Notes: generated from the letters alone by a model not told the origin. A stretch of DNA of 39,225 nt from an uncultured Alphaproteobacteria bacterium (GCA_944391535.1 CALXTY010000003.1:1-39225); one strand, 5' to 3'. Shown: positions 17,002 to 28,250, numbered from the stretch's first letter. Numbers and translations: made by a program.

Positions 17002-17979
17002 TTAAGTTACTTCTGTAACGGCACGAATGTTTCCTTGACGGTTAATCTGCACGACACGTAACTTATCGTGCATTTCAGCGATTGTTTTTTCCCGATCAAT
17101 CGTCGGATAACAATGCAAAATACGATCTGTAAAAGCCTTATAAGCCGCTTCGGAATTTTCGGCATGAATTGTCGCAAAACAGTTATCGTGTCCGGATCCC
17201 ATCAGTTCCCATAACGCTCCGGCATTCGCCGTCGAAATTTCACCGCCGATAATGGCATCCGGCGTAAAACGGACAACCAAGTCGATCAATTTGGGATATG
17301 TCATTGTATTGGTTTGTTCCGTTCGCGATAAAACCAAATGGACATGATTGGGATGAGGCACAATCAATTCGCGCGTATCTTCGATCGTAATCACACGTTT
17401 ATGAGAATCCAAAATAGTTAACAAATTGTTTAAAAAAGTCGTCTTACCGGTTGCCGTTGCCCCTGAAACCAAAATATGATCCCCCCGTTTAATTGATAAA
17501 ATCAACCGTTCATAGGGATCTTCCGGATTTTCGATTTCTTTTAATTTATTGAGCTTTTGCAAACGTTCTCCGGATTTTAAGCCATAATCGCCCAAACCGA
17601 ATTTTACATCGTCAGAATGAACACGGACACACATTGCTATACCGCCAGTCAGATCTTCATTGTCGTACATCACGTTTTTACCCGCAATCCCGGTAAAACG
17701 GTGATCTCCCGGCAAAGTCGCATAAACAGCTGGAGACCCTTGTTCCGGATCAAACGGCAATTCAAACGTGTTCGCAATGATATGCATTATATCCGTCAAA
17801 TACGTTCTTGACAGATTGGTGTCCTGTTGACACGCCCAGGGATGGGCTCTACGTCCGCGTAAACGCAGCCAAATTTCATTTGGACGATTGATTGCGACTT
17901 CTTCCACATTATCCTGTTCATACCAATACGACAAATAACGCAATGTCGATTTTAAAACCTGAAAAGAATCCGTACTCAT
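17002..17979 (-). CDS. virB11: Type IV secretion ATPase VirB11
   Basis: EEVAINRP, Walker A GATATGKTT, Asp box TIEDTREL, Walker B PDAIIGGE, His box SGH...TIHA; directly downstream of virB10; RBS AAGGAG. Confidence 0.85.
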   Translation of the reverse strand: MSTDSFQVLKSTLRYLSYWYEQDNVEEVAINRPNEIWLRLRGRRAHPWACQQDTNLSRTYLTDIMHIIANTFELPFDPEQGSPAVYATLPGDHRFTGIAGKNVMYDNEDLTGGIAMCVRVHSDDVKFGLGDYGLKSGERLQKLNKLKEIENPEDPYERLILSIKRGDHILVSGATATGKTTFLNNLLTILDSHKRVITIEDTRELIVPHPNHVHLVLSRTEQTNTMTYPKLIDLVVRFTPDAIIGGEISTANAGALWELMGSGHDNCFATIHAENSEAAYKAFTDRILHCYPTIDREKTIAEMHDKLRVVQINRQGNIRAVTEVT

Positions 17980-17997: not shown

Positions 17998-20900
17998 TTA
18001 GAAAAGCTCTGGAACAGGATCTTCCGGTTCTTCCTGCTTTTCGACAACAACAGGCTGAACAATCTGTGGCTGAACCTTGTCTTTATTCGGATCAATCAAC
18101 TGTTTAGGTCTTTGAGGTTGCTGACCTGCGTAGTTATTATAATAAATTTGTTGTTGTTGTTGCAAATTATTCGGATCATTCGGATTGGTTTGCATATTCT
18201 GAGCATTCGGATCTCCGGTTGTCGTTCCGGAAGAACCGCCGGAATTTTCCGATTCGATATTTTCTTTTTTATTTTTATCCGGATCAATCAAAACGTCTTT
18301 CTTTCTTGATGATGAGTCCTCATCATCATCTTCCAAAGCACTACGCAACCATAAATCCGAATTTGCAAACACGGTAATGCGCGTTCCGGAAGGAACGAAC
18401 AATCGAGTCTTTAACTGCGTCGTTTCTGCAAGAATGCCGTCAAAAACCTGTTGCATCGTATCAGAAAATCTTGTTCGAGCATCTTCAGCCGCCTGTTGTC
18501 TTCCGGTCATAGCGACTTCGCCTTCAGCGCCGACCTCCGCGGAATCGTTTGATGCCATCGCATACAAAATGGCAGAAGTAATCGTTGATTGAACGAACGG
18601 CAATCCGTACTTCTTCATCAACTGTCTGTCCATATACGCGCTCACCCCCGCTCGACCGGACGCATCGCCGGAAACGCCTTCTTCAAACTGGAATGCCGCT
18701 CCGTCCGGACGAATTAAACGCGTCCATTTGATTTCCACCTTAGAAGCCGATCCGACTTCTTCACCGGCTGACGAACCGCTTAATTCACCGATCACACGAC
18801 TGCCTGCCGGAATGATGATTTTTCGACCCGATTCCGAATATATGTTACGTTCAACTATTGCTGAAATCGGCAAATCGGGTTGTTCCGTATCAATCGAACG
18901 AACCAATACCGCAGGAATGGCTTTATCCGCCAAAATCATATTATCCATGTTGACACGATATGAAGAAACATTCTTCAACACACCCAAATCCGCCCAGCTT
19001 TTACTGCGCTTTTGTTTCTTCATCAAATCTTCTTCCGTTGACGAAACACCGATGCCCATGCCGGGACGAATCTGACGGCGATACGCCATCTGCAAGGCTC
19101 GCAATTGCTTAATTCTGGCGGGATCGTAACGTTCTCCCTGACCTGTCCCGCCACCGCTTCCCAAGGATTTCCCCCTATATCGATAACTGTCCGGATCAAA
19201 TGTGCCAAAAACTGAAACACGGTCTTTTGTATCAGTTTTTTCAGACGCTTGAACTGTTGTCGGCTCTGTCATTGAACCGATAATATTGCCGTCCAAATCA
19301 ACAACATTACCGTTTTCATCAACTCGACCGATGATATTACCGTTTTCATCGACAACCGTACCGTCCGGCATAATCATTCCTATGCGCTGCCCGTTTTTAC
19401 CAAAAGCAAAACGCTTCGCCTGAAGCTTATCATTCATCGCCGTCAGCTTCCCGCCGCGCCATGTCCCCAAAACGGTGCCGTCAGCGTCCACAATTTCTCC
19501 GTTCGCATTGATCCGGCCAATCATTTTTCCGTCCAAATCGACGACTCGACCGTCCGGCATAATGATCCCCACAATATTTCCCTGTTCGTCACGCATCGGT
19601 TCTCCTTCAATCACAGAACCGATCACATTGCCGTTCATATCTACGACCGTTCCGTCCGGCAATACCCGACCGACCACATTCCCGTTAGCATCTCGAACCA
19701 AGCCGTCTTCACCGACAACACCCAAAAATTTACCGTCACGCCCGACAGCAATACGAACATTTTTTGCCTCAACAGGCGGCCCGGCTCGACCGATAACTTT
19801 CCCGGTCGCATCAACAATTGTCCCGTCGGGCTGTACTCTTCCGATTACATTGCCTTTAAAATCAACAACCGTTCCGTCCGGCAATACCCGACCGATCACA
19901 TTGCCGTTCGCATCATAGGCCAAACGCTCGGGCGGCCCCGCCCGACCGATCACATTGCCGTTTGCATCAACGACCGTACCGTCCGGCAACATTTTGCCGA
20001 TCACATTGCCCTTTAAATCAACAACTGTTCCGTCCGGCAGAACTCTTCCGATCACGTTGCCGTTTGCATCGTAGACCAAACGGTCTTCCCCTGCTTTTGT
20101 CAGGAAATTTCCTTTTGAATCGACAATACCGTCTTCTTGCAAAGCCCGGCCGATAATGTTGCCGTTCATATCGACAACGGTACCGTCCGGCAACATTCTG
20201 CCAATGATATTGCCATTTTCATCACGCAAATATCCGTCTGCGTCAACAATGCCCAAAAATTTACCGTCGGGACTAAATACGGCTCCTTTCGGATAAGCTT
20301 TCCCTATCACATTACCGTCTAAATCGACAACCGTACCATCCGGCAACACTCGACCGATTATGTTGCCGTTTGCATCACGAATAAAACCGTCCGCACCAAC
20401 AACACCCAAAGGTTTACCGTCAGGACCATAAACCATTCTCCCGATCAATCCTTTAGGGAACAAAGAACCGTCGTCATTCGTGCTGATTAATGAAATCATA
20501 CATAAATGCGTCCCCGCATTGCTTAACGCCTGACCACTGGCCAACAGTCGTCCTAAAACCTGCTTACGATCGTCAACAATCGTTCCATCAAAATGAACCG
20601 TTCCAACAACGTTGTTTTTACCGTCCTTACATTCTTCTCCAAGCGGCACAACCCGACCTAAAAACTTGCGATTGCTCGTCAAAACACGCATCGAAGAAGT
20701 AACATAACCGACTTCCCGACCATTGTCGTTATAAACGTTTCCTCGTGGTAATACCGTCCCCACAATTTGACCGTCCGTCGCGATTACACGACGCCCCGAA
20801 GGAACCAACACGCCTAATTTTTTATTATTCGTGTCCGTTAAATCCTGACCGTTCAACATACCGACAAAAGAACCGCCTTGGGGATTGACGCCGTATGCCC

Positions 20901-23900
20901 CCCCTAAAATATGAGCAATGACACTGCCTTGATCATCAACGGCATATTTCATGTCGGAAGCAACGCCGATTATTTTTTGCCCTTTATCAACAACCGCGCC
21001 GTTAACCGTAAAACATCCTAAAACATCGCCTTGCGATCCTAAAGCTTCTCCATTGGACACGATTTTCCCGATCATTTGATCATCAGGACCTTTGACCTGT
21101 CCTTTTTGAACAACGCGTCCCAAGCGTTTGCCGTTTTTATCTTTGACCAAACCTTCAAAATCGACACAACCGATTTGTTCCCCTTGATTGTTGACGGCTT
21201 TTCCTTGCGCCGTCATTTGACCGATGATATTGCACGGCTCATTGATTATGCTTTCCTGTCCTAACGCCAAACCGATCTGAGAATTCCCCGAATTGATCAA
21301 TGAACGATCGTAATTCAAACGACCAATCTGCCGTCCCGTCGGATCAATTACGTTCCCCGCATCGTCAATCGCGCCTAATGTTTGACATTGCAAACCAATC
21401 GGAACGGCATTTACAACGCCTTTTCCGATAACGATATCGTTCCCGTCCGTAATGGTGTCATCTGCTTGTAAAGTCCCCAAGGATTCCTCAGAACCGACTT
21501 GCCTGACCTGTCCGGAAGAATCAATCTTTCCTATGATTTCATTTTTAAAGTTCAATCCCAGACCGTCTTTTACGGTATAGCCCGCGATCTTTGATCCCAA
21601 AGCCGTCACCGTACCGTCGGACTGAAGACGACCAATCACATTGCCTTTCAAATCAACAACCGTGCCGTCAGCTAAAACACGGCCGATTAAATTACCGTTT
21701 TCATCATATACCAATTGTTCCGGAGATCCCGCCCGACCAATTACATTGCCGTTTAAATCCACAACCGTCCCGTCCGGTAACATTTTACCGATGACATTGC
21801 CGTTTAAATCAACAACCGTCCCGTCAGGCAACACACGACCGATCACGTTGCCGTTTTCATCATACACCAAACGTTCCAACGACTCTCCGACTTTCCCGAT
21901 CTGCTTGCCGCTGTCTTCCACAACGGAACCGCCGGCTCTGTAACGCAAAGGTTTACCGTCGGATCCTAAAACAGGATTTCCGTCTTTATCCACAATCTGT
22001 CCGTCAATGCCGACATAACCTATAATCTTACCGTCAGGACCGATAATTGGCTGACCGACAGGAATAACTTCCCCTATAACACGACCGTTTTTATCGACAA
22101 CCCTACCGTTTAAATCCGCCTTGCCGATAACGCGTCCCGAAGCGTCAACAACCGTCCCGTCAGGCATGACGACACCTAAAATTTCTCCGTTCGGGCCTAT
22201 CACTTGACGCATACCGACAAAAATTTTACCAACAACGCGCCCTTCTTTATTAATAATTTCTCCGGACGGCATTTTTAAACGCCCCAAATAACGGCTGAGA
22301 AGATCTAGAGCCGTCCCGTCAGGCAACAAACGTCCGATCTTTTCACTGGTTTTTATATCCAGCACGTCCGCTTTGCGCGGAATGATCCCTCCGAAAATAT
22401 TATCCCCTTCTTTAATAAATCCGCTAAGCGTTACGGATCCGATAAATTCCGTCCCTTGCAGATTCATCGCTTTGGCAATGGAATCACCTCTGGCATAAAG
22501 ATGCGTCTTGTCATTGACGGCGATTCCTTCGGGCAAAGCCGCTCCTAAAAATTTGTTCCCCGCATCAACAAATAAAGAATCCGGACGTAAACACCCGATT
22601 TTTTCTCCGGCAGGATTCAATAATGCCCCGTCCAAATTCACAGAACCCAAATACATATCTTTCGCGCTGATGGCTCTGTTCGCGTAAGCAACACGCCCGA
22701 CAAATTCTCCGTTTTCTTTCGTTAAAGAATCGTCATTTTGAATAAAAGCCGTCCGATTGAATCCGTCATCAACAACACGCCCGTCAATCAAAATTCGACC
22801 GACTGTCTCACACGCCCCTTTTAATGCCTTGCCCTTGTAAGGAGCCACTCTGGCAACCGTTTGTCCGGTCAAATCAATGACACTACCGTCAGGCATCACT
22901 TTCCCGACCGTGCTGTTTTTTCCATTTGACACCGATCCGTCCGGCATTACCCAACCGATCGTACGACCGCTGCGATCCAGCACCCCGCCAAACGGCATTA
23001 ACATACCGACAGCTTCGTTCTTTGAATTGATGACAAGACCGTCCGGATCCATACAACCTAATATTTTTCCTTGCTTATCCTGAACCTTTCCCGCAGAATC
23101 CATTACGCCGACAACTCGACCGTCACCATTTAAAGCGACACCGAAATCCAGTATCCTGCCCAGAACAACCTTTTGATTATCCAAAATTTCGCCGTTAGCC
23201 GCCAAACAACCGACCATTTCTCCTCTGGTCGTAACGACTTCGCCATCCAAGTTGGCATATCCTAATGACATACACCCGGGACCAACGCCCACATTTTGAC
23301 GAGATAACGCACCTTCAATTTTTCCTTTCGTCGACAAAAATGATTTGTCCGGCAGTATGCGTCCTTTAATCTCACCATTTCCCACAACACTGCCGTCGGG
23401 CATAACACGTCCCACAACACCGCATTGCGTCCCGACAATTGTTCCTTTGGGCAAAACCGCGGCGGTAATTTCTTCCGCGTCATTAACAACCGTACCGTAC
23501 GGCGTTAAACACCCTAAAGGATCCCCTTTAAAACTGACGGGATGCCCTTCTGAATCAACTTTACCGACAATTTTGCCCGCCCAGTCGATTAAAGCGCCTT
23601 CTTCAACATAACCGCCGATCGGATTACCAACCATATCGACAACCGTCATAGACGCTGTCAATCGACCCACTTGACGATTAGAGGACATGACGGAACCGTC
23701 CGTACTGATCCGGCCGATCATTTTACAGCCCGGCCCGATAGCCAAACCTTCTTTAACAACGCGACCGATAATGTTCCCGTCTTTATCAACCACTAAACCG
23801 TTGGGCAGGACGCGACCGATAATATTACCGTCTTTATCTACAACCGTACCATCGGGCATAACGATCCCCAAAGGATTGCCCAAAGCATCGACAACCGTTC

Positions 23901-25014
23901 CCTGCGGGGCGACGGATCCGATAATATTGCCGTTGGCGTCAACAATCGTCCCGTCCGGATTTAAATAGCCGATCACGTTCCCGTTTTCATCGACAACCGT
24001 ACCGTCCGGCATGATCCGTCCAATGGGATTGCCATTTTTATCATACGCTATCCCCGTTCGAACCGCAGATCCGATTACATTCCCGTTTTCATCAACGATT
24101 GTGCCATCCGGCAAAGCGTGACCGATCAGGCGACCGTCTTTATCTACAACACGACCGTCCGCTAAAATTGTTCCAAGAATTTCTCCGTTCGGGCCGATCG
24201 CCAAACGCGTTCCTTCCGCCACACCGATCACATAACCTTGATCATCAACAACCGTTCCGTCTTCGCGCAAAGTACCAATGCGTTTGCCGTCCAAACCGTA
24301 AACAACGCCATTTTCGTCGGCATATCCGATCGGTTTGCCGTCAGGACCTAAAATCACACGACCTTTTTGGCGCAACTGATCCAACATTGTCCCGCCACTG
24401 CCCGGAGCTTCATCACACACGCCGCACATACTGGTATCAATAGCCATGGCGGAAATAGGAACAATCACTTTACGGCCGATACCGCCAAAAGTTTCATCAA
24501 CCCAACGAATGGACAGATTGGATTGAATCGTTCGAGCGGTTTTCGGTTCCCAACGAACGACGACGTTGCAAGTGACGTCTCCGGTCAGAACGATGTCTTT
24601 GCGACACTTGTTCTCCAAAACAAATCCGTCTTCTTGTTTATTCTCAAACTCTATCGACGAAATGCTAATCCGTCCGGAAGACGCCGAAAGTGTCAACGTG
24701 CCTTCCGCCATTGTCCCCAGAACCACCTGATCAAAGCGCATCGTTTCCGGAGACACCACCAAACGAACCGTCGCCGCAGAAGCCGGATCATCACCCAAAT
24801 TGAACGCGTCGGCATTCCCGCCGACAATGCTGCTAGAACTCTCGGCCGAACCTCCAATGGTAACTTCGGCGTCCTTTTTATGTTCTTCTCCCCCGCTCAG
24901 CAGAATAATCACGCCCGTCAAAAACGCTAAAAGAGCGACTATTCCAACAATCAAAAGCATCCTGTTGGATTTCTTTAAATATCTGTCTGATGAGCTGAGT
25001 AATTCTTCGTTCAT
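17998..25014 (-). CDS. virB10: Giant VirB10/TrbI-family T4SS core protein with long repeat region (~2338 aa)
   Basis: N-terminal TM helix (MLLIVGIVALLAFLTGVIILLS). C-terminal TrbI domain at ~18346-18939 (IPAVL..SID, IIIPAGSRVIG, WTRLIRPDG, DASGRAG, VPSGTRITVFANSDL). Lies between virB9 and virB11; ATG 25014 overlaps the virB9 TGA. Confidence 0.88.
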   Translation of the reverse strand: MNEELLSSSDRYLKKSNRMLLIVGIVALLAFLTGVIILLSGGEEHKKDAEVTIGGSAESSSSIVGGNADAFNLGDDPASAATVRLVVSPETMRFDQVVLGTMAEGTLTLSASSGRISISSIEFENKQEDGFVLENKCRKDIVLTGDVTCNVVVRWEPKTARTIQSNLSIRWVDETFGGIGRKVIVPISAMAIDTSMCGVCDEAPGSGGTMLDQLRQKGRVILGPDGKPIGYADENGVVYGLDGKRIGTLREDGTVVDDQGYVIGVAEGTRLAIGPNGEILGTILADGRVVDKDGRLIGHALPDGTIVDENGNVIGSAVRTGIAYDKNGNPIGRIMPDGTVVDENGNVIGYLNPDGTIVDANGNIIGSVAPQGTVVDALGNPLGIVMPDGTVVDKDGNIIGRVLPNGLVVDKDGNIIGRVVKEGLAIGPGCKMIGRISTDGSVMSSNRQVGRLTASMTVVDMVGNPIGGYVEEGALIDWAGKIVGKVDSEGHPVSFKGDPLGCLTPYGTVVNDAEEITAAVLPKGTIVGTQCGVVGRVMPDGSVVGNGEIKGRILPDKSFLSTKGKIEGALSRQNVGVGPGCMSLGYANLDGEVVTTRGEMVGCLAANGEILDNQKVVLGRILDFGVALNGDGRVVGVMDSAGKVQDKQGKILGCMDPDGLVINSKNEAVGMLMPFGGVLDRSGRTIGWVMPDGSVSNGKNSTVGKVMPDGSVIDLTGQTVARVAPYKGKALKGACETVGRILIDGRVVDDGFNRTAFIQNDDSLTKENGEFVGRVAYANRAISAKDMYLGSVNLDGALLNPAGEKIGCLRPDSLFVDAGNKFLGAALPEGIAVNDKTHLYARGDSIAKAMNLQGTEFIGSVTLSGFIKEGDNIFGGIIPRKADVLDIKTSEKIGRLLPDGTALDLLSRYLGRLKMPSGEIINKEGRVVGKIFVGMRQVIGPNGEILGVVMPDGTVVDASGRVIGKADLNGRVVDKNGRVIGEVIPVGQPIIGPDGKIIGYVGIDGQIVDKDGNPVLGSDGKPLRYRAGGSVVEDSGKQIGKVGESLERLVYDENGNVIGRVLPDGTVVDLNGNVIGKMLPDGTVVDLNGNVIGRAGSPEQLVYDENGNLIGRVLADGTVVDLKGNVIGRLQSDGTVTALGSKIAGYTVKDGLGLNFKNEIIGKIDSSGQVRQVGSEESLGTLQADDTITDGNDIVIGKGVVNAVPIGLQCQTLGAIDDAGNVIDPTGRQIGRLNYDRSLINSGNSQIGLALGQESIINEPCNIIGQMTAQGKAVNNQGEQIGCVDFEGLVKDKNGKRLGRVVQKGQVKGPDDQMIGKIVSNGEALGSQGDVLGCFTVNGAVVDKGQKIIGVASDMKYAVDDQGSVIAHILGGAYGVNPQGGSFVGMLNGQDLTDTNNKKLGVLVPSGRRVIATDGQIVGTVLPRGNVYNDNGREVGYVTSSMRVLTSNRKFLGRVVPLGEECKDGKNNVVGTVHFDGTIVDDRKQVLGRLLASGQALSNAGTHLCMISLISTNDDGSLFPKGLIGRMVYGPDGKPLGVVGADGFIRDANGNIIGRVLPDGTVVDLDGNVIGKAYPKGAVFSPDGKFLGIVDADGYLRDENGNIIGRMLPDGTVVDMNGNIIGRALQEDGIVDSKGNFLTKAGEDRLVYDANGNVIGRVLPDGTVVDLKGNVIGKMLPDGTVVDANGNVIGRAGPPERLAYDANGNVIGRVLPDGTVVDFKGNVIGRVQPDGTIVDATGKVIGRAGPPVEAKNVRIAVGRDGKFLGVVGEDGLVRDANGNVVGRVLPDGTVVDMNGNVIGSVIEGEPMRDEQGNIVGIIMPDGRVVDLDGKMIGRINANGEIVDADGTVLGTWRGGKLTAMNDKLQAKRFAFGKNGQRIGMIMPDGTVVDENGNIIGRVDENGNVVDLDGNIIGSMTEPTTVQASEKTDTKDRVSVFGTFDPDSYRYRGKSLGSGGGTGQGERYDPARIKQLRALQMAYRRQIRPGMGIGVSSTEEDLMKKQKRSKSWADLGVLKNVSSYRVNMDNMILADKAIPAVLVRSIDTEQPDLPISAIVERNIYSESGRKIIIPAGSRVIGELSGSSAGEEVGSASKVEIKWTRLIRPDGAAFQFEEGVSGDASGRAGVSAYMDRQLMKKYGLPFVQSTITSAILYAMASNDSAEVGAEGEVAMTGRQQAAEDARTRFSDTMQQVFDGILAETTQLKTRLFVPSGTRITVFANSDLWLRSALEDDDEDSSSRKKDVLIDPDKNKKENIESENSGGSSGTTTGDPNAQNMQTNPNDPNNLQQQQQIYYNNYAGQQPQRPKQLIDPNKDKVQPQIVQPVVVEKQEEPEDPVPELF
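19270..24363 (-). repeat. Intragenic coding repeat array, 17-aa unit (consensus ~DGTVVDxNGNVIGRVLP) in ~51-aa modules
   Basis: Visible in the translation and as recurring ccgatcacattgccg / accgtccgg words in DNA; ~1700 aa, roughly 100 units. Conserved blocks alternate with degenerate Cys-bearing blocks. Confidence 0.92.
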
Positions 25015-26537
25015 TGTGTCCGCACAACCATACAAGTCACACCACGGCGACCTAATTGATTACATAATTTATCCCCCGCCTCGATACTGTCCACGGGACC
25101 GATGCGCAAACGGAATAAATCCCTTGATTCACCTTCGGCAACCGCATCAACGGAATAATACGGCTCGTAAGATCCCAATAGATCTTTGTTCTTACGGGAT
25201 ATGTTATCCCATTTTTGTTCCAAAGGCGCAATTTCTCTGTCCGCTCCTAATTCGACGGCGATTGTTTCTTCAGCTGCGGAACGGTAGCGCTGTCTCATAC
25301 GAGAGGTATTGCCTTGTTCTTGGCGTCCCGAAAATTGAGCAATCTGATTCGCCGACAAAATACCGTTCGGCCCCGCTTGCATCATTAAACTGTTAGCCGC
25401 CCGCATATTGGCATTGTCAGCGTTTGAAGATGCTGACACCGTCGTTCCGTTGTAGCCTCCCGTCGTTATCATCGGCCCCGGAGACCATTGAGGCTGAACG
25501 GAAGGTTCGTATTCAACCCATTCCGTACCAAAAGACGGATCTTTTCTGATCTTCAAACATAAAATCCGTTTCCCGTTACGTAAAACCAAATCTCCGATCC
25601 CTTCAACAACCATCAACCTGCCGTTCGGCCCTCTTGTCCTGAAACCGATCGGCACTTCGGATCCTTGCGACAACAAATTCACAATCGGACGTTCCGTCAT
25701 CGTCAACGCTTTCGGACCGAAATCAATATATGTAAAGATCTCGTCGCGCCACACACGTTCCGGTGCAATTTCCATGTCCGCCGGATTGGGAACAAATACG
25801 TCTATGTCAAAACGCAATTTTTCAGGATCGACTTCAATATCCGCCAACCAGTCTTCCGTCCCGTTCTTTGTCGTCGCTTTTTTGGTTCCTTTAATCGCAC
25901 TGCCAAAACTTCCGCTTGTTAATCCTCCTCCCATTCCGACGGCTCCTGCCGAAAAAGGCGTCTGTCCTGAATCATCGGGAACGAATTTTGCATCGTTGAC
26001 AACAATGTCAACAACAGAGTTTGTAATTCTGTCCGTATTAAAGGTCTCGCTTCTTAAATAAAAGACATATCTGTTACCCGAACGACCGAATACAATCATA
26101 TTCGTGTCCATACCGACCAAATCGACGCTGGCGGCGAAGACCATTAAAGCATTTTGGGCGACTTTCTGAGCCCCGAAAGCGCTTTCGTTACCCAAAAAAA
26201 CGTTTTCGATCAATTCCCACGAAGGAAAATTGATCAACGTATGCATTCCTTCCCTGATCCGAAGAGGCAACACCAAATCCGGCGTCCAATAATATCTGGA
26301 ATAGCCCGGCTTCGATTGACCTTCTCCAAGATGTTCCATCGGCTTGTTCCAAGCTTTTTGTTGCATTCCCAAAGACCAAAACGGCATATCGATTTCGGAA
26401 TACTGCCCGTTCGATTGTTCTATCGCCGCGTCCATGGATTCACGCGCGGCCGTCTGTTGAGCCACAACCGACTGCGTTAAAAAGCAAAGCGATACAAAAA
26501 CAAATGCAAAAAGGCGATTACTTAAACTTCTTTTCAC
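25011..26537 (-). CDS. virB9: VirB9/TrbG-family T4SS core protein fused to a C-terminal SPOR domain
   Basis: Signal peptide; DTNMIVFGRSGNRYVFYL, IAPERVWRDEIFTYIDF, LVLRNGKRILCL (VirB9-like). C-terminal IAVELGA...FRLRIGP...AGDKLCNQLGRRGVTCMVV (SPOR). GTG start after AGAAGG. Confidence 0.85.
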   Translation of the reverse strand: MKRSLSNRLFAFVFVSLCFLTQSVVAQQTAARESMDAAIEQSNGQYSEIDMPFWSLGMQQKAWNKPMEHLGEGQSKPGYSRYYWTPDLVLPLRIREGMHTLINFPSWELIENVFLGNESAFGAQKVAQNALMVFAASVDLVGMDTNMIVFGRSGNRYVFYLRSETFNTDRITNSVVDIVVNDAKFVPDDSGQTPFSAGAVGMGGGLTSGSFGSAIKGTKKATTKNGTEDWLADIEVDPEKLRFDIDVFVPNPADMEIAPERVWRDEIFTYIDFGPKALTMTERPIVNLLSQGSEVPIGFRTRGPNGRLMVVEGIGDLVLRNGKRILCLKIRKDPSFGTEWVEYEPSVQPQWSPGPMITTGGYNGTTVSASSNADNANMRAANSLMMQAGPNGILSANQIAQFSGRQEQGNTSRMRQRYRSAAEETIAVELGADREIAPLEQKWDNISRKNKDLLGSYEPYYSVDAVAEGESRDLFRLRIGPVDSIEAGDKLCNQLGRRGVTCMVVRTQ

Positions 26538-26549
26538 GGGACACCTTCT

Positions 26550-27317
26550 TTACTCGTTAGCACTTTCGATTGAATAGCCGTCAACAGCAAAACCCAAAGG
26601 ATTCTTCAATCGATTAATATATTTAACTTCTTTTTGATCCTTGGCAAAATATTTGATCGACAAACGTATTCGCCAACGCGAAACCGCCGGTTCTTCTGCT
26701 TCGGGCAACATATCTCTGGTCACAATGTAAACCAACCAAATATTTTGGTTGCGAACAACGGATTCAATCCGGACTTCTCTGGTCAAACCTTCCAGTTTAA
26801 TTCGAGACAACCAATCTTTGACCGTCTTGCTAAACTGGTTGTATACCTGAGCGGAAGACATCCAACGCAAAGGACCGTCCGTCCCCCAACGAAACGACAT
26901 TTCATCAACATCGGATATCATCGTGTTGCGCAAAAGAACGTATTGGCGAATCATCGCTTCGGAAATAATATCCTCAGCCGCCATATCTTTCGCCAAAGGG
27001 CGAATTTTCACGACTTGTTCCTCTCTGTTCTGAAATGTCAGCAAAAAAGGTTCCACTCGTTTCAACGGCATCATATGAGAGATCGCCAAAAGTAAAACCA
27101 AGTTCACGCACAACGCCACCGCAGACACGATCGCAAAAGCACGCGCCGTCCACAAATAACGCCGTTCCCGCAGCTGATCGACAGACACCTCTTCGCTTAT
27201 GTTTTCAACAAACGAAGGCTTCTTTAAAGAGCTTTTCTGAATTTCATCTTCTTTGACAGATCCGGTTCCATGCTCTTTCACAGTCAACTGCTGTCTTGAT
27301 TTCACAGGTCTTGGCAT
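26550..27317 (-). CDS. virB8: VirB8-family T4SS protein (downstream paralog)
   Basis: Single TM helix then MPLKRVEPFLL, EAMIRQYVLLR, RLKNPLGFAVDGY (NPxG motif). Confidence 0.87.
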   Translation of the reverse strand: MPRPVKSRQQLTVKEHGTGSVKEDEIQKSSLKKPSFVENISEEVSVDQLRERRYLWTARAFAIVSAVALCVNLVLLLAISHMMPLKRVEPFLLTFQNREEQVVKIRPLAKDMAAEDIISEAMIRQYVLLRNTMISDVDEMSFRWGTDGPLRWMSSAQVYNQFSKTVKDWLSRIKLEGLTREVRIESVVRNQNIWLVYIVTRDMLPEAEEPAVSRWRIRLSIKYFAKDQKEVKYINRLKNPLGFAVDGYSIESANE

Positions 27318-27545: not shown

Positions 27546-28250
27546 CTATTTCTTTTGCCGAGCCAAATGATATTGGGTCACCGTAAATCCCAACGGATTG
27601 CGCAAACGGGAAAACATAACGGCATTATCCGCATAGTATCGAAACTGAATGGTCGCAATCCAATGTTCTATCACCGGAGTACTGACCGAAGTTTCCATCT
27701 TTCGCGTATCAAAAAATATCTGCCAACTGTTCCAGCCTTCTTTGATAATCCGTTTAATATCCGTTTCCACCATCACGGTCGGAGCCCGCTCCAAATCAGG
27801 AAAATATCGCCCTCGTTCACGTTCCACGAATGCCTCATACACCGCCGGAGACGACATATAACGCACAACGCCTCCCGGACCGATCATACGCCGCATTTCC
27901 GGCGCATTCCGCCAAATATTATTTCTGGCCGTCACATATTGGCGCACAAACATTTCAGCCAACACATCCATCGCCGGCATATCCGGATGCAACGGTTCAA
28001 AATAACTTAAGTTCTCCGAATACGTCGGAGCAGTCACCAACACCGGAAAAACATCCGCTTCTTTACTGATATGAATTAAAGACAACGCCAAAACAGCAAC
28101 CGACGTCATCAAAAAAAAGCATATAAAAGCAAAAATTCGCGACAACCACATAAACGTGGTGATACGTTTACCGTCCGCCGGCGGCATTCCCAAAGTCGCA
28201 GCTTTCTTGATATTTTCGCGAACAGACGCATTTGACATACTTTTTTCCAT
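27546..28250 (-). CDS. virB8: VirB8-family T4SS protein (upstream paralog)
   Basis: Single TM helix, EMFVRQYVTAR, VRYMSSPAVY, RLRNPLGFTVTQY (NPxG motif). Confidence 0.82.
   Translation of the reverse strand: MEKSMSNASVRENIKKAATLGMPPADGKRITTFMWLSRIFAFICFFLMTSVAVLALSLIHISKEADVFPVLVTAPTYSENLSYFEPLHPDMPAMDVLAEMFVRQYVTARNNIWRNAPEMRRMIGPGGVVRYMSSPAVYEAFVERERGRYFPDLERAPTVMVETDIKRIIKEGWNSWQIFFDTRKMETSVSTPVIEHWIATIQFRYYADNAVMFSRLRNPLGFTVTQYHLARQKK

Follow-up and report, generated by a model that had tools for sequence, protein, structure and literature searches.

Canonical VirB10/TrbI proteins of type IV secretion systems, for example those of Agrobacterium and pKM101, are about 400 amino acids (aa) long and have a short proline-rich periplasmic linker. 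They are bitopic inner-membrane proteins with the bulk of the chain in the periplasm, and this topology is carried over here to a giant VirB10. The giant VirB10 homologue of Helicobacter pylori, CagY, has two cysteines in each repeat module of its middle region, and these are modelled as intrachain disulfides in the available part of its description (PMC10706595). The beta-flowers form a second point of comparison; the accessible text on them describes each of them as one closed barrel of 8, 10 or 12 strands and of 4-, 5- or 6-fold symmetry, carrying a [DNEQ]xxG motif at the hairpin tips (PMC10584680). The gene studied here lies in a 39,225-nucleotide stretch from an uncultured Alphaproteobacteria bacterium (GCA_944391535.1 CALXTY010000003.1:1-39225), the whole of which is referred to as the window. 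Judged from its sequence, the minus-strand gene at 17998-25014 codes for a giant member of the VirB10/TrbI proteins of type IV secretion. The long hairpin array of this protein holds 14 cysteines in seven pairs, which are probably intramolecular periplasmic disulfides, in six cases connecting the tip of a module's first hairpin to the long strand of the second hairpin in the module that follows. The gene, its array and the cysteine features are as follows.

17998..25014, minus strand: giant virB10/trbI gene, with the ATG at residue 8 (25012-25014) as its likely start
19261..24360, minus strand: array of about 100 beta-hairpin repeats of 17 aa, residues 226-1925, from Pfam and register assignment
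22519..23763, minus strand: cysteine block A, residues 425-839, eight three-hairpin modules with four inter-module pairs
23509..23727, minus strand: block A pair Cys437 (23725-23727) and Cys509 (23509-23511)
23206..23424, minus strand: block A pair Cys538 (23422-23424) and Cys610 (23206-23208)
23053..23274, minus strand: block A pair Cys588 (23272-23274) and Cys661 (23053-23055)
22591..22812, minus strand: block A pair Cys742 (22810-22812) and Cys815 (22591-22593), present only in the clade of the window protein
20485..21414, minus strand: cysteine block B, residues 1208-1517, with the inter-module pairs 1217-1290 and 1268-1341 and the intra-module pair 1469-1512

Spacing and register of the repeat-region cysteines

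Residues are numbered throughout from the TTG which opens the listed open reading frame (ORF; 17998-25035, minus strand, 2,345 codons) and not from the likely ATG. The array follows the consensus GTVVDxNGNVIGRxLPD, and periodic register assignment resolved it into 100 repeats, 79 of them exactly 17 aa long. The Pfam model Bflower_2 (PF21785) matched the array with 434 bits over 18 stretches (cut-off 38) and Bflower with 148 bits (cut-off 25). DUF3659 (PF12396) also matched above its cut-off, and RHS_repeat reached 75 bits, though no single stretch passes alone. The consensus holds D5-x-x-G8, which is the hairpin-tip motif of the beta-flowers.

The translated ORF contains 19 cysteines, exactly 14 of which lie in the repeat region (residues 437-1512; 20500-23727). 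A first-pass annotation of the region had described 14 cysteines, all in degenerate blocks and paired by motif and spacing, and this was confirmed on the translation and the repeat register. All 14 are located in sequence-degenerate repeats and none in the canonical PDGTVVDxNGNVIGR repeats. The six cysteines with the motif xCxx(I/V/L)G (type-1; 437, 538, 588, 742, 1217 and 1268) are all found at repeat position 8, where they substitute the glycine of the DxxG hairpin tip, and the six cysteines of the GC motif (type-2; 509, 610, 661, 815, 1290 and 1341) are all found at position 13. The type-2 partner is always exactly four repeats downstream of its type-1 cysteine. The resulting spacing is 73 aa for 588-661, 742-815, 1217-1290 and 1268-1341, and 72 aa for 437-509 and 538-610 because 16-aa repeats (#13 and #19) fall between those partners. 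The last two cysteines, 1469 and 1512, are 43 aa apart.

This spacing pattern is not a product of chance. With 14 cysteines scattered uniformly over residues 430-1530, 29 of 200,000 shuffles brought six pairs into one distance bin of width 2. A register-aware null, in which six type-1 and six type-2 cysteines were placed among 64 repeats, gave all six at one shared offset in none of 200,000 trials.

Relatives were collected by a word-indexed homologue search with residues 420-1530 as query. At least 833 related proteins were found at E <= 0.001 among 8,000 scored candidates, with a listing of 120 of them, and the family set analysed consists of 121 proteins. Nearly all the matches listed are 2,000-2,600 aa long with the same Pfam make-up; nine are 36-85% identical and the others about 25%. 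The few source names, together with 28 related genomic loci, indicated mostly uncultured Alphaproteobacteria from gut and rumen metagenomes. Three loci (L003, L021 and L025) carry an otherwise alphaproteobacterial gene and are labelled Limosilactobacillus gorillae or Bacteroidaceae bacterium, probably through bin contamination or mislabelling.

The spacing recurred throughout the family set. Counted free of any alignment, 73 was the commonest distance between two cysteines (385 pairs), followed by 51 (182 pairs), and the distances from type-1 to type-2 cysteines were 73 (329 times), 72 (16), 74 (10) and 75 (9). Further peaks at 22, 124 and 174 are the arithmetic outcome of doublets spaced 51 apart. 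A partner at 72-74 was present for 318 of 366 type-1 cysteines, 387 of 438 type-2 cysteines and all 50 cysteines with both motifs, and several motif-typed cysteines lacking it have a partner at 71, 75 or 77. Matches at E <= 0.001 were also obtained for 450 proteins in a library of representatives at 50% identity. Among the 140 new representatives listed, 44 have at least one pair at 71-75, most with the same two motifs; a few cysteine-rich unrelated proteins among the representatives match this spacing by chance.

Among 94 full-length homologues, 74 have a span of 225 aa from Cys437 to Cys661 and 11 have one of 224 aa, and the total length of the full-length homologues varies from about 2,000 to 2,600 aa. 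On these family sequences, the cysteines are confined to degenerate blocks that are ancient and constant in length. This confinement may arise because unequal recombination would break a pair spanning four hairpins if it lay in the near-identical consensus repeats.

Cysteine pairs of other types were seen near the array end (about residues 1709-1882) in homologues P0012, P0013, P0017 and others. One type has a spacing of 21-22 aa and recurs every 73-81 aa, and the other pairs, with spacings of 39 or 56-58 aa, lie in irregular elements.

Joint gain and loss of the partners

The partners were compared across the relatives in two alignments. The first, of residues 396-839 with 62 homologues (63 rows), contained no mixed state, that is, one partner being present and the other absent, for any of the four block A pairs. 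The second was made with MAFFT for the 121 proteins and gave the following counts, gapped rows being set aside. The alignment of the 25%-identity proteins is uncertain in block B, and the direction of the covariation result is uniform nonetheless.

437/509: 90 rows with both cysteines, 30 with neither, 0 mixed
538/610: 79 rows with both cysteines, 15 with neither, 1 mixed (homologue P0026)
588/661: 93 rows with both cysteines, 3 with neither, 0 mixed
742/815: 9 rows with both cysteines, 102 with neither, 0 mixed
1217/1290: 19 rows with both cysteines, 102 with neither, 0 mixed
1268/1341: 26 rows with both cysteines, 84 with neither, 0 mixed
1469/1512: 10 rows with both cysteines, 85 with neither, 0 mixed

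The counts also bear on a different connectivity within the doublets, in which 588-610 and 1268-1290 would be joined over 22 aa between adjacent hairpins, with 538-661 and 1217-1341 across. Distances of 22 and 124 aa are indeed frequent in the family, though arithmetically tied to the doublet layout. The alternative pairings gave 16 mixed states for 538/588, 15 for 588/610, 15 for 610/661 and 27 for 1217/1268. Moreover, 588/661 persist in the 15 rows where 538/610 are both absent, and in homologue P0010, read directly from its sequence, 1217 (to G) and 1290 (to S) are both lost while 1268 and 1341 are kept. The isolated pairs, namely 437-509, 742-815 and the single pair of the homologues of about 1,600 aa, are all spaced by 72-73. 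The crossed connectivity is therefore disfavoured to the point of having next to no probability.

A tree was inferred from the TrbI domain alone (111 rows), the ten proteins without this domain being left out. On this tree the sites 437 and 509 showed five changes each. The phylogenetically independent contrasts ran in the same direction in 5 of 5 cases for 437/509, in about 1.9 of 2 for 538/610 and in 1 of 1 for each other pair. This amounts to about 11.9 of 12 for the seven proposed pairs, compared to about 2.6 of 16 for nine alternative neighbour pairings. With a single mixed state in the seven pairs, the result is in accordance with the earlier expectation that partners would be gained and lost pairwise across orthologues, and not independently.

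The tree also bears on the view that the partners have no physical link and that their pairing simply reflects common descent or the internal duplication of a cysteine-bearing segment. Most of the counts do come from a few conserved ancestral positions, the independent contrasts number only about 12, and the 51-spaced doublets of blocks A and B could be paralogous. Against this, both partners were gained or lost together in separate lineages, five times for 437/509 alone, and neighbouring cysteines that are not partners vary without regard to each other. When 742/815 arose in one clade, it took up the register, offset and module phase of the other pairs, and the shuffles failed to reproduce the spacing. 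A pairing by descent or duplication alone is thus highly improbable.

The ten relatives without a TrbI domain (P0023, P0058, P0062, P0072, P0079, P0088, P0094, P0096, P0097 and P0099) are 1,310-1,581 aa long and have the N-terminal domain and repeats including a cysteine doublet. Their genes may have been called too short, or they may be repeat proteins in their own right.

Predicted modules and the nature of the proposed bonds

Two parts of the array were modelled with AlphaFold2. The model of residues 396-839 (63 rows) showed a mean predicted local distance difference test score (pLDDT) of 93.0 and a predicted template modelling score (pTM) of 0.87, while that of residues 1161-1569 (64 rows) showed 87.3 and 0.66. 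By the DSSP assignment both models are all-beta: each repeat contributes a short strand and a long one, and the helix content is just two 3-residue helical turns. The pLDDT of the blocks in block A lay at 90-97 throughout, and modules free of cysteine were as confident as those bearing it. The idea in the first-pass annotation of rigid rods alternating with cysteine-free segments is accordingly unsupported by the model. The sole segment with pLDDT below 50 in either model is the following.

20461..20484, minus strand: low-confidence linker STNDDGSL, residues 1518-1525 (model-2 residues 358-365), directly after Cys1512

This linker may act as a hinge joining block B to the C-terminal consensus array.

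Foldseek gave local, hairpin-level matches to CROP, Rhs and designed propeller repeats (E 1e-9 to 1e-5) and no global fold match (template modelling score, TM, 0.08-0.15; root-mean-square deviation 20-48 Å). With VIA-align, no match above Z 4.5 was obtained for either model and no family assignment follows. The VIA-align matches cover pieces of about 50 residues whose ends recur every 51 residues, the ranges being 30-84, 135-183, 184-236, 237-285, 285-339, 340-390 and 391-444 in model 1, and 46-99, 202-236, 251-303, 304-359 and 358-409 in model 2. Rows within one 51-aa unit (+/-3 residues) numbered 41 of 41 in one search and 47 of 50 in another. The borders in model 2 were forecast from the cysteine phase ahead of the search and were found within about 2 residues.

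The same period was observed in two independent signals from the sequence. Identity at lag 51/52 is equal to or higher than that at lag 17 in several blocks (for example 0.50 vs 0.46 for residues 226-430), and Tandem Repeats Finder reported a 156-nt period at 19775-20082. On the basis of the structural tiling, the lag 51/52 identity and the 156-nt period, the unit of about 51 aa with three hairpins is real, and the folding unit of this size suggested in the first-pass annotation is borne out. A solenoid with four hairpins per turn and stacked 4- or 5-fold flowers were both rejected, as the repeat indices of the type-1 cysteines vary modulo 4 and modulo 5 and share one remainder modulo 3 in each block, and the models tile with a period of 51 aa. 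In homologue P0002 (47% identical), the C-terminal consensus array appeared by eye to have a period of about 85 aa (five hairpins, 2+3). From this period, module size may differ between blocks or species.

The position of the cysteines within these modules was regular. All six type-1 cysteines lie in hairpin 1 of a module and all six type-2 cysteines in hairpin 2 of the following module, and therefore each 72-73 pair bridges consecutive modules; each of the two doublets spans a run of three modules. Cys1469 is placed in hairpin 1 and Cys1512 in hairpin 3 of a single module, the last before the low-confidence linker, and this pair would therefore close a module and join none, in agreement with the earlier reading of the last two cysteines as 43 apart inside one module. 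Distances of up to 330 aa between partnered type-1 cysteines in 261 proteins lay within 3 residues of a multiple of 51 in 258 of 262 cases, which are mostly the same conserved sites and not independent counts. Altogether, cysteines occur in about 11 of about 33 modules.

The following arrangement would account for these observations. In this VirB10, 17-aa beta-hairpin repeats, about 100 in all, would stand in place of the periplasmic linker, with three successive hairpins packing into a module of about 51 aa and about 33 such modules in series. Six junctions of consecutive modules, in two old and length-conserved degenerate blocks, would each carry a cysteine pair, the type-1 cysteine replacing the tip glycine in hairpin 1 of module k and the type-2 cysteine replacing the arginine of the long hairpin-2 strand in module k+1. 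The seventh pair would link hairpins 1 and 3 of the module that ends block B, ahead of the flexible linker. Once the chain is exported to the oxidising periplasm, the sulfur atoms of each pair would be in contact in space and become oxidised to intramolecular disulfides, and these would stabilise the array by locking neighbouring modules together and in one case by closing a module. The inter-module staples proposed in the first-pass annotation thus stand as far as the partners behave as units in evolution and the module assignment bridges neighbours, while the bond itself is a prediction.

VirB10 proteins assemble into multi-copy rings, and the disulfides could also connect neighbouring protomers of the secretion ring arranged as staggered parallel rods; co-variation alone cannot separate contacts within a chain from those between chains. 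This is quite improbable, as the fixed offset of four hairpins and the hairpin-1/hairpin-2 relation at six sites are what one continuous chain gives, and the monomer model is already confident. The CagY trimer model, as far as its description is available, also found only intrachain bonds (PMC10706595).

The redox setting was examined in the genome to which the window belongs (1.92 Mb, 197 contigs, 88.8% complete). Two DSBA-family matches were found; one is an ORF with a signal peptide and a CGYC motif, and the second (L002) has neither a signal peptide nor CxxC and is, from its sequence, probably cytoplasmic. The oxidising periplasm invoked in the first-pass annotation fits the presumed N-terminal membrane helix, the known VirB10 topology and the DsbA-like ORF. 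Searches of this genome for DsbB and VKOR found neither. The last point, together with the gut and rumen organisms to which the relatives point, would favour partners that are close in space and co-evolving but not permanently bonded, acting as a redox switch or staying reduced in an anaerobic gut bacterium. Such a switch role is also proposed for the CagY cysteine pairs in the part of PMC10706595 at hand. This reading is nevertheless unlikely here, since a secreted DsbA-like protein with CGYC is present, the genome is only 88.8% complete, and the strict pairwise retention across homologues of 25% identity fits a bond that needs both cysteines.

Intramolecular disulfides hence remain the probable reading, and several points weigh against it. 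AlphaFold2 itself draws on co-variation, so that its models and the covariation evidence are not independent. Weak matches (Z <= 4.5) underlie the module borders, and three modules were unmatched with their borders interpolated. The independent events are few, five for 437/509 and one or two for every other pair, and P0026 holds an orphan cysteine equivalent to 610 without the equivalent of 538. DsbB and VKOR were not found, although at 88.8% completeness absence from the genome is not shown. A general covariation scan, using mutual information with average product correction on 94 full-length rows (effective sequence number 53), was noise-dominated and showed no contacts between hairpins n and n+4 beyond the cysteine columns; there was a mere slight rise at offsets 71-73, and the top pairs were phylogenetic noise.

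Gene neighbourhood and comparison with known systems

The other features of the gene and the secretion genes around it are as follows.

18346..18936, minus strand: C-terminal TrbI/VirB10 domain, residues 2034-2230 (Pfam PF03743, E 1.7e-31, 110 bits, cut-off 35)
24391..24768, minus strand: N-terminal periplasmic domain, residues 90-215, with four cysteines (144, 156, 204 and 207)
24895..24960, minus strand: N-terminal hydrophobic stretch, about residues 26-47, read from the translation, with basic residues just ahead
17002..17979, minus strand: virB11-type ATPase gene directly downstream (Pfam T2SSE, E 1.1e-20)
25011..26537, minus strand: virB9/cagX homologue directly upstream, with a C-terminal SPOR domain (Pfam CagX, E 7.4e-14)
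26550-27317 and 27546-28250, minus strand: two tandem virB8 paralogues (Pfam VirB8, E 3.4e-22 and 2.4e-16)

The two virB8 genes, the CagX/VirB9 gene and the T2SSE ATPase gene all flank virB10 on the same strand, and the remainder of the window consists of housekeeping genes. The secretion genes are embedded among these with no obvious plasmid or island context. The terminal SPOR domain of the VirB9/CagX homologue, which is peptidoglycan-binding, scored 24.1 bits against a cut-off of 21.

The homologues start with MNEELL, which corresponds to residue 8 of the listed ORF, and the ATG at this residue overlaps the virB9 stop codon as ATGA (25011-25014). For these reasons the TTG start is probably not used and Cys4 of the ORF probably not translated. 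The overlap suggests translational coupling. The hydrophobic stretch that follows is presumed to be the inner-membrane anchor. Cys144, 156, 204 and 207 of the N-terminal domain, the last two forming a CxxC, are cysteine in all 103 aligned family rows covering them and could form two further disulfides or a metal site. Family members of about 1,600 aa without this four-cysteine domain were also seen.

In the literature searched, no description was found of a VirB10 with DUF3659 or of a cysteine pattern in these repeats, nothing linked RF32 to type IV secretion, and nothing relevant appeared on VirB10 in metagenome-assembled genomes from the gut. The beta-flower Pfam accessions led only to the beta-flower paper, its preprint and unrelated papers. 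The seven specific bonds proposed here offer a concrete and testable wiring diagram for a large family annotated only as 'hypothetical' or 'DUF3659'.

A stalk architecture not described before can also be put forward, as possible but doubtful, in which about 33 three-hairpin mini-barrels follow one another, the staples mark an ancient length-invariant core and the cysteine-free modules serve as a length ruler. If this is true, the stapled core could dock other parts of the machine, and the cysteine-free consensus modules, expanding and contracting between species, could be a ruler open to evolution. Cysteine pairs across four hairpins may then be tolerated only where unequal recombination of the repeats has ceased.

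Compared with canonical VirB10, the window protein has the presumed N-terminal membrane anchor, the C-terminal TrbI domain and the gene order virB8-virB9-virB10-virB11 in common, but it carries a 1,700-aa hairpin array in place of the linker and an extra four-cysteine N-terminal domain. The repeats match the hidden Markov models of the beta-flowers (PF21784 and PF21785; clan CL0395) and of DUF3659 far above the cut-offs and share the tip motif. They differ in that the array is about 100 continuous hairpins and its models tile in three-hairpin units, and neither a cysteine pattern nor a link to secretion systems is mentioned in the available text of PMC10584680. The pairs provide evolutionary contact evidence for the packing of beta-flower-type hairpins in long arrays; the family evidence points to three-hairpin modules joined head to tail, an arrangement that no solved structure matches. 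Clostridial toxin CROP, choline-binding and Rhs/YD repeats gave the best Foldseek matches, with the likeness at the level of the single hairpin alone, and the Rhs structures match the window models only locally (TM about 0.09).

CagY is the closest precedent. Both proteins have a VirB10 C-terminal domain behind a very long repeat array, and in both the cysteines of the repeat region come in partner pairs, for which intrachain disulfides that stabilise the array have been modelled or proposed, as far as PMC10706595 could be consulted. No sequence relation was seen between the two sets of repeats. According to the same portion of that source, the CagY modules are alpha-helical, with a cysteine pair in every module and its two members about 3 residues apart across a helix-helix turn. 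In contrast, the window repeats are all-beta hairpins, the partners of the inter-module pairs are 72-73 aa apart in different modules, and about 11 of about 33 modules contain cysteine. The window protein is a different solution to the same kind of problem, and a second case, beside CagY, in which the periplasmic part of VirB10 has grown into a repeat array that is probably cysteine-stapled, built here from a different fold. The comparison suggests that the two are convergent solutions to the stiffening of a very long stalk.

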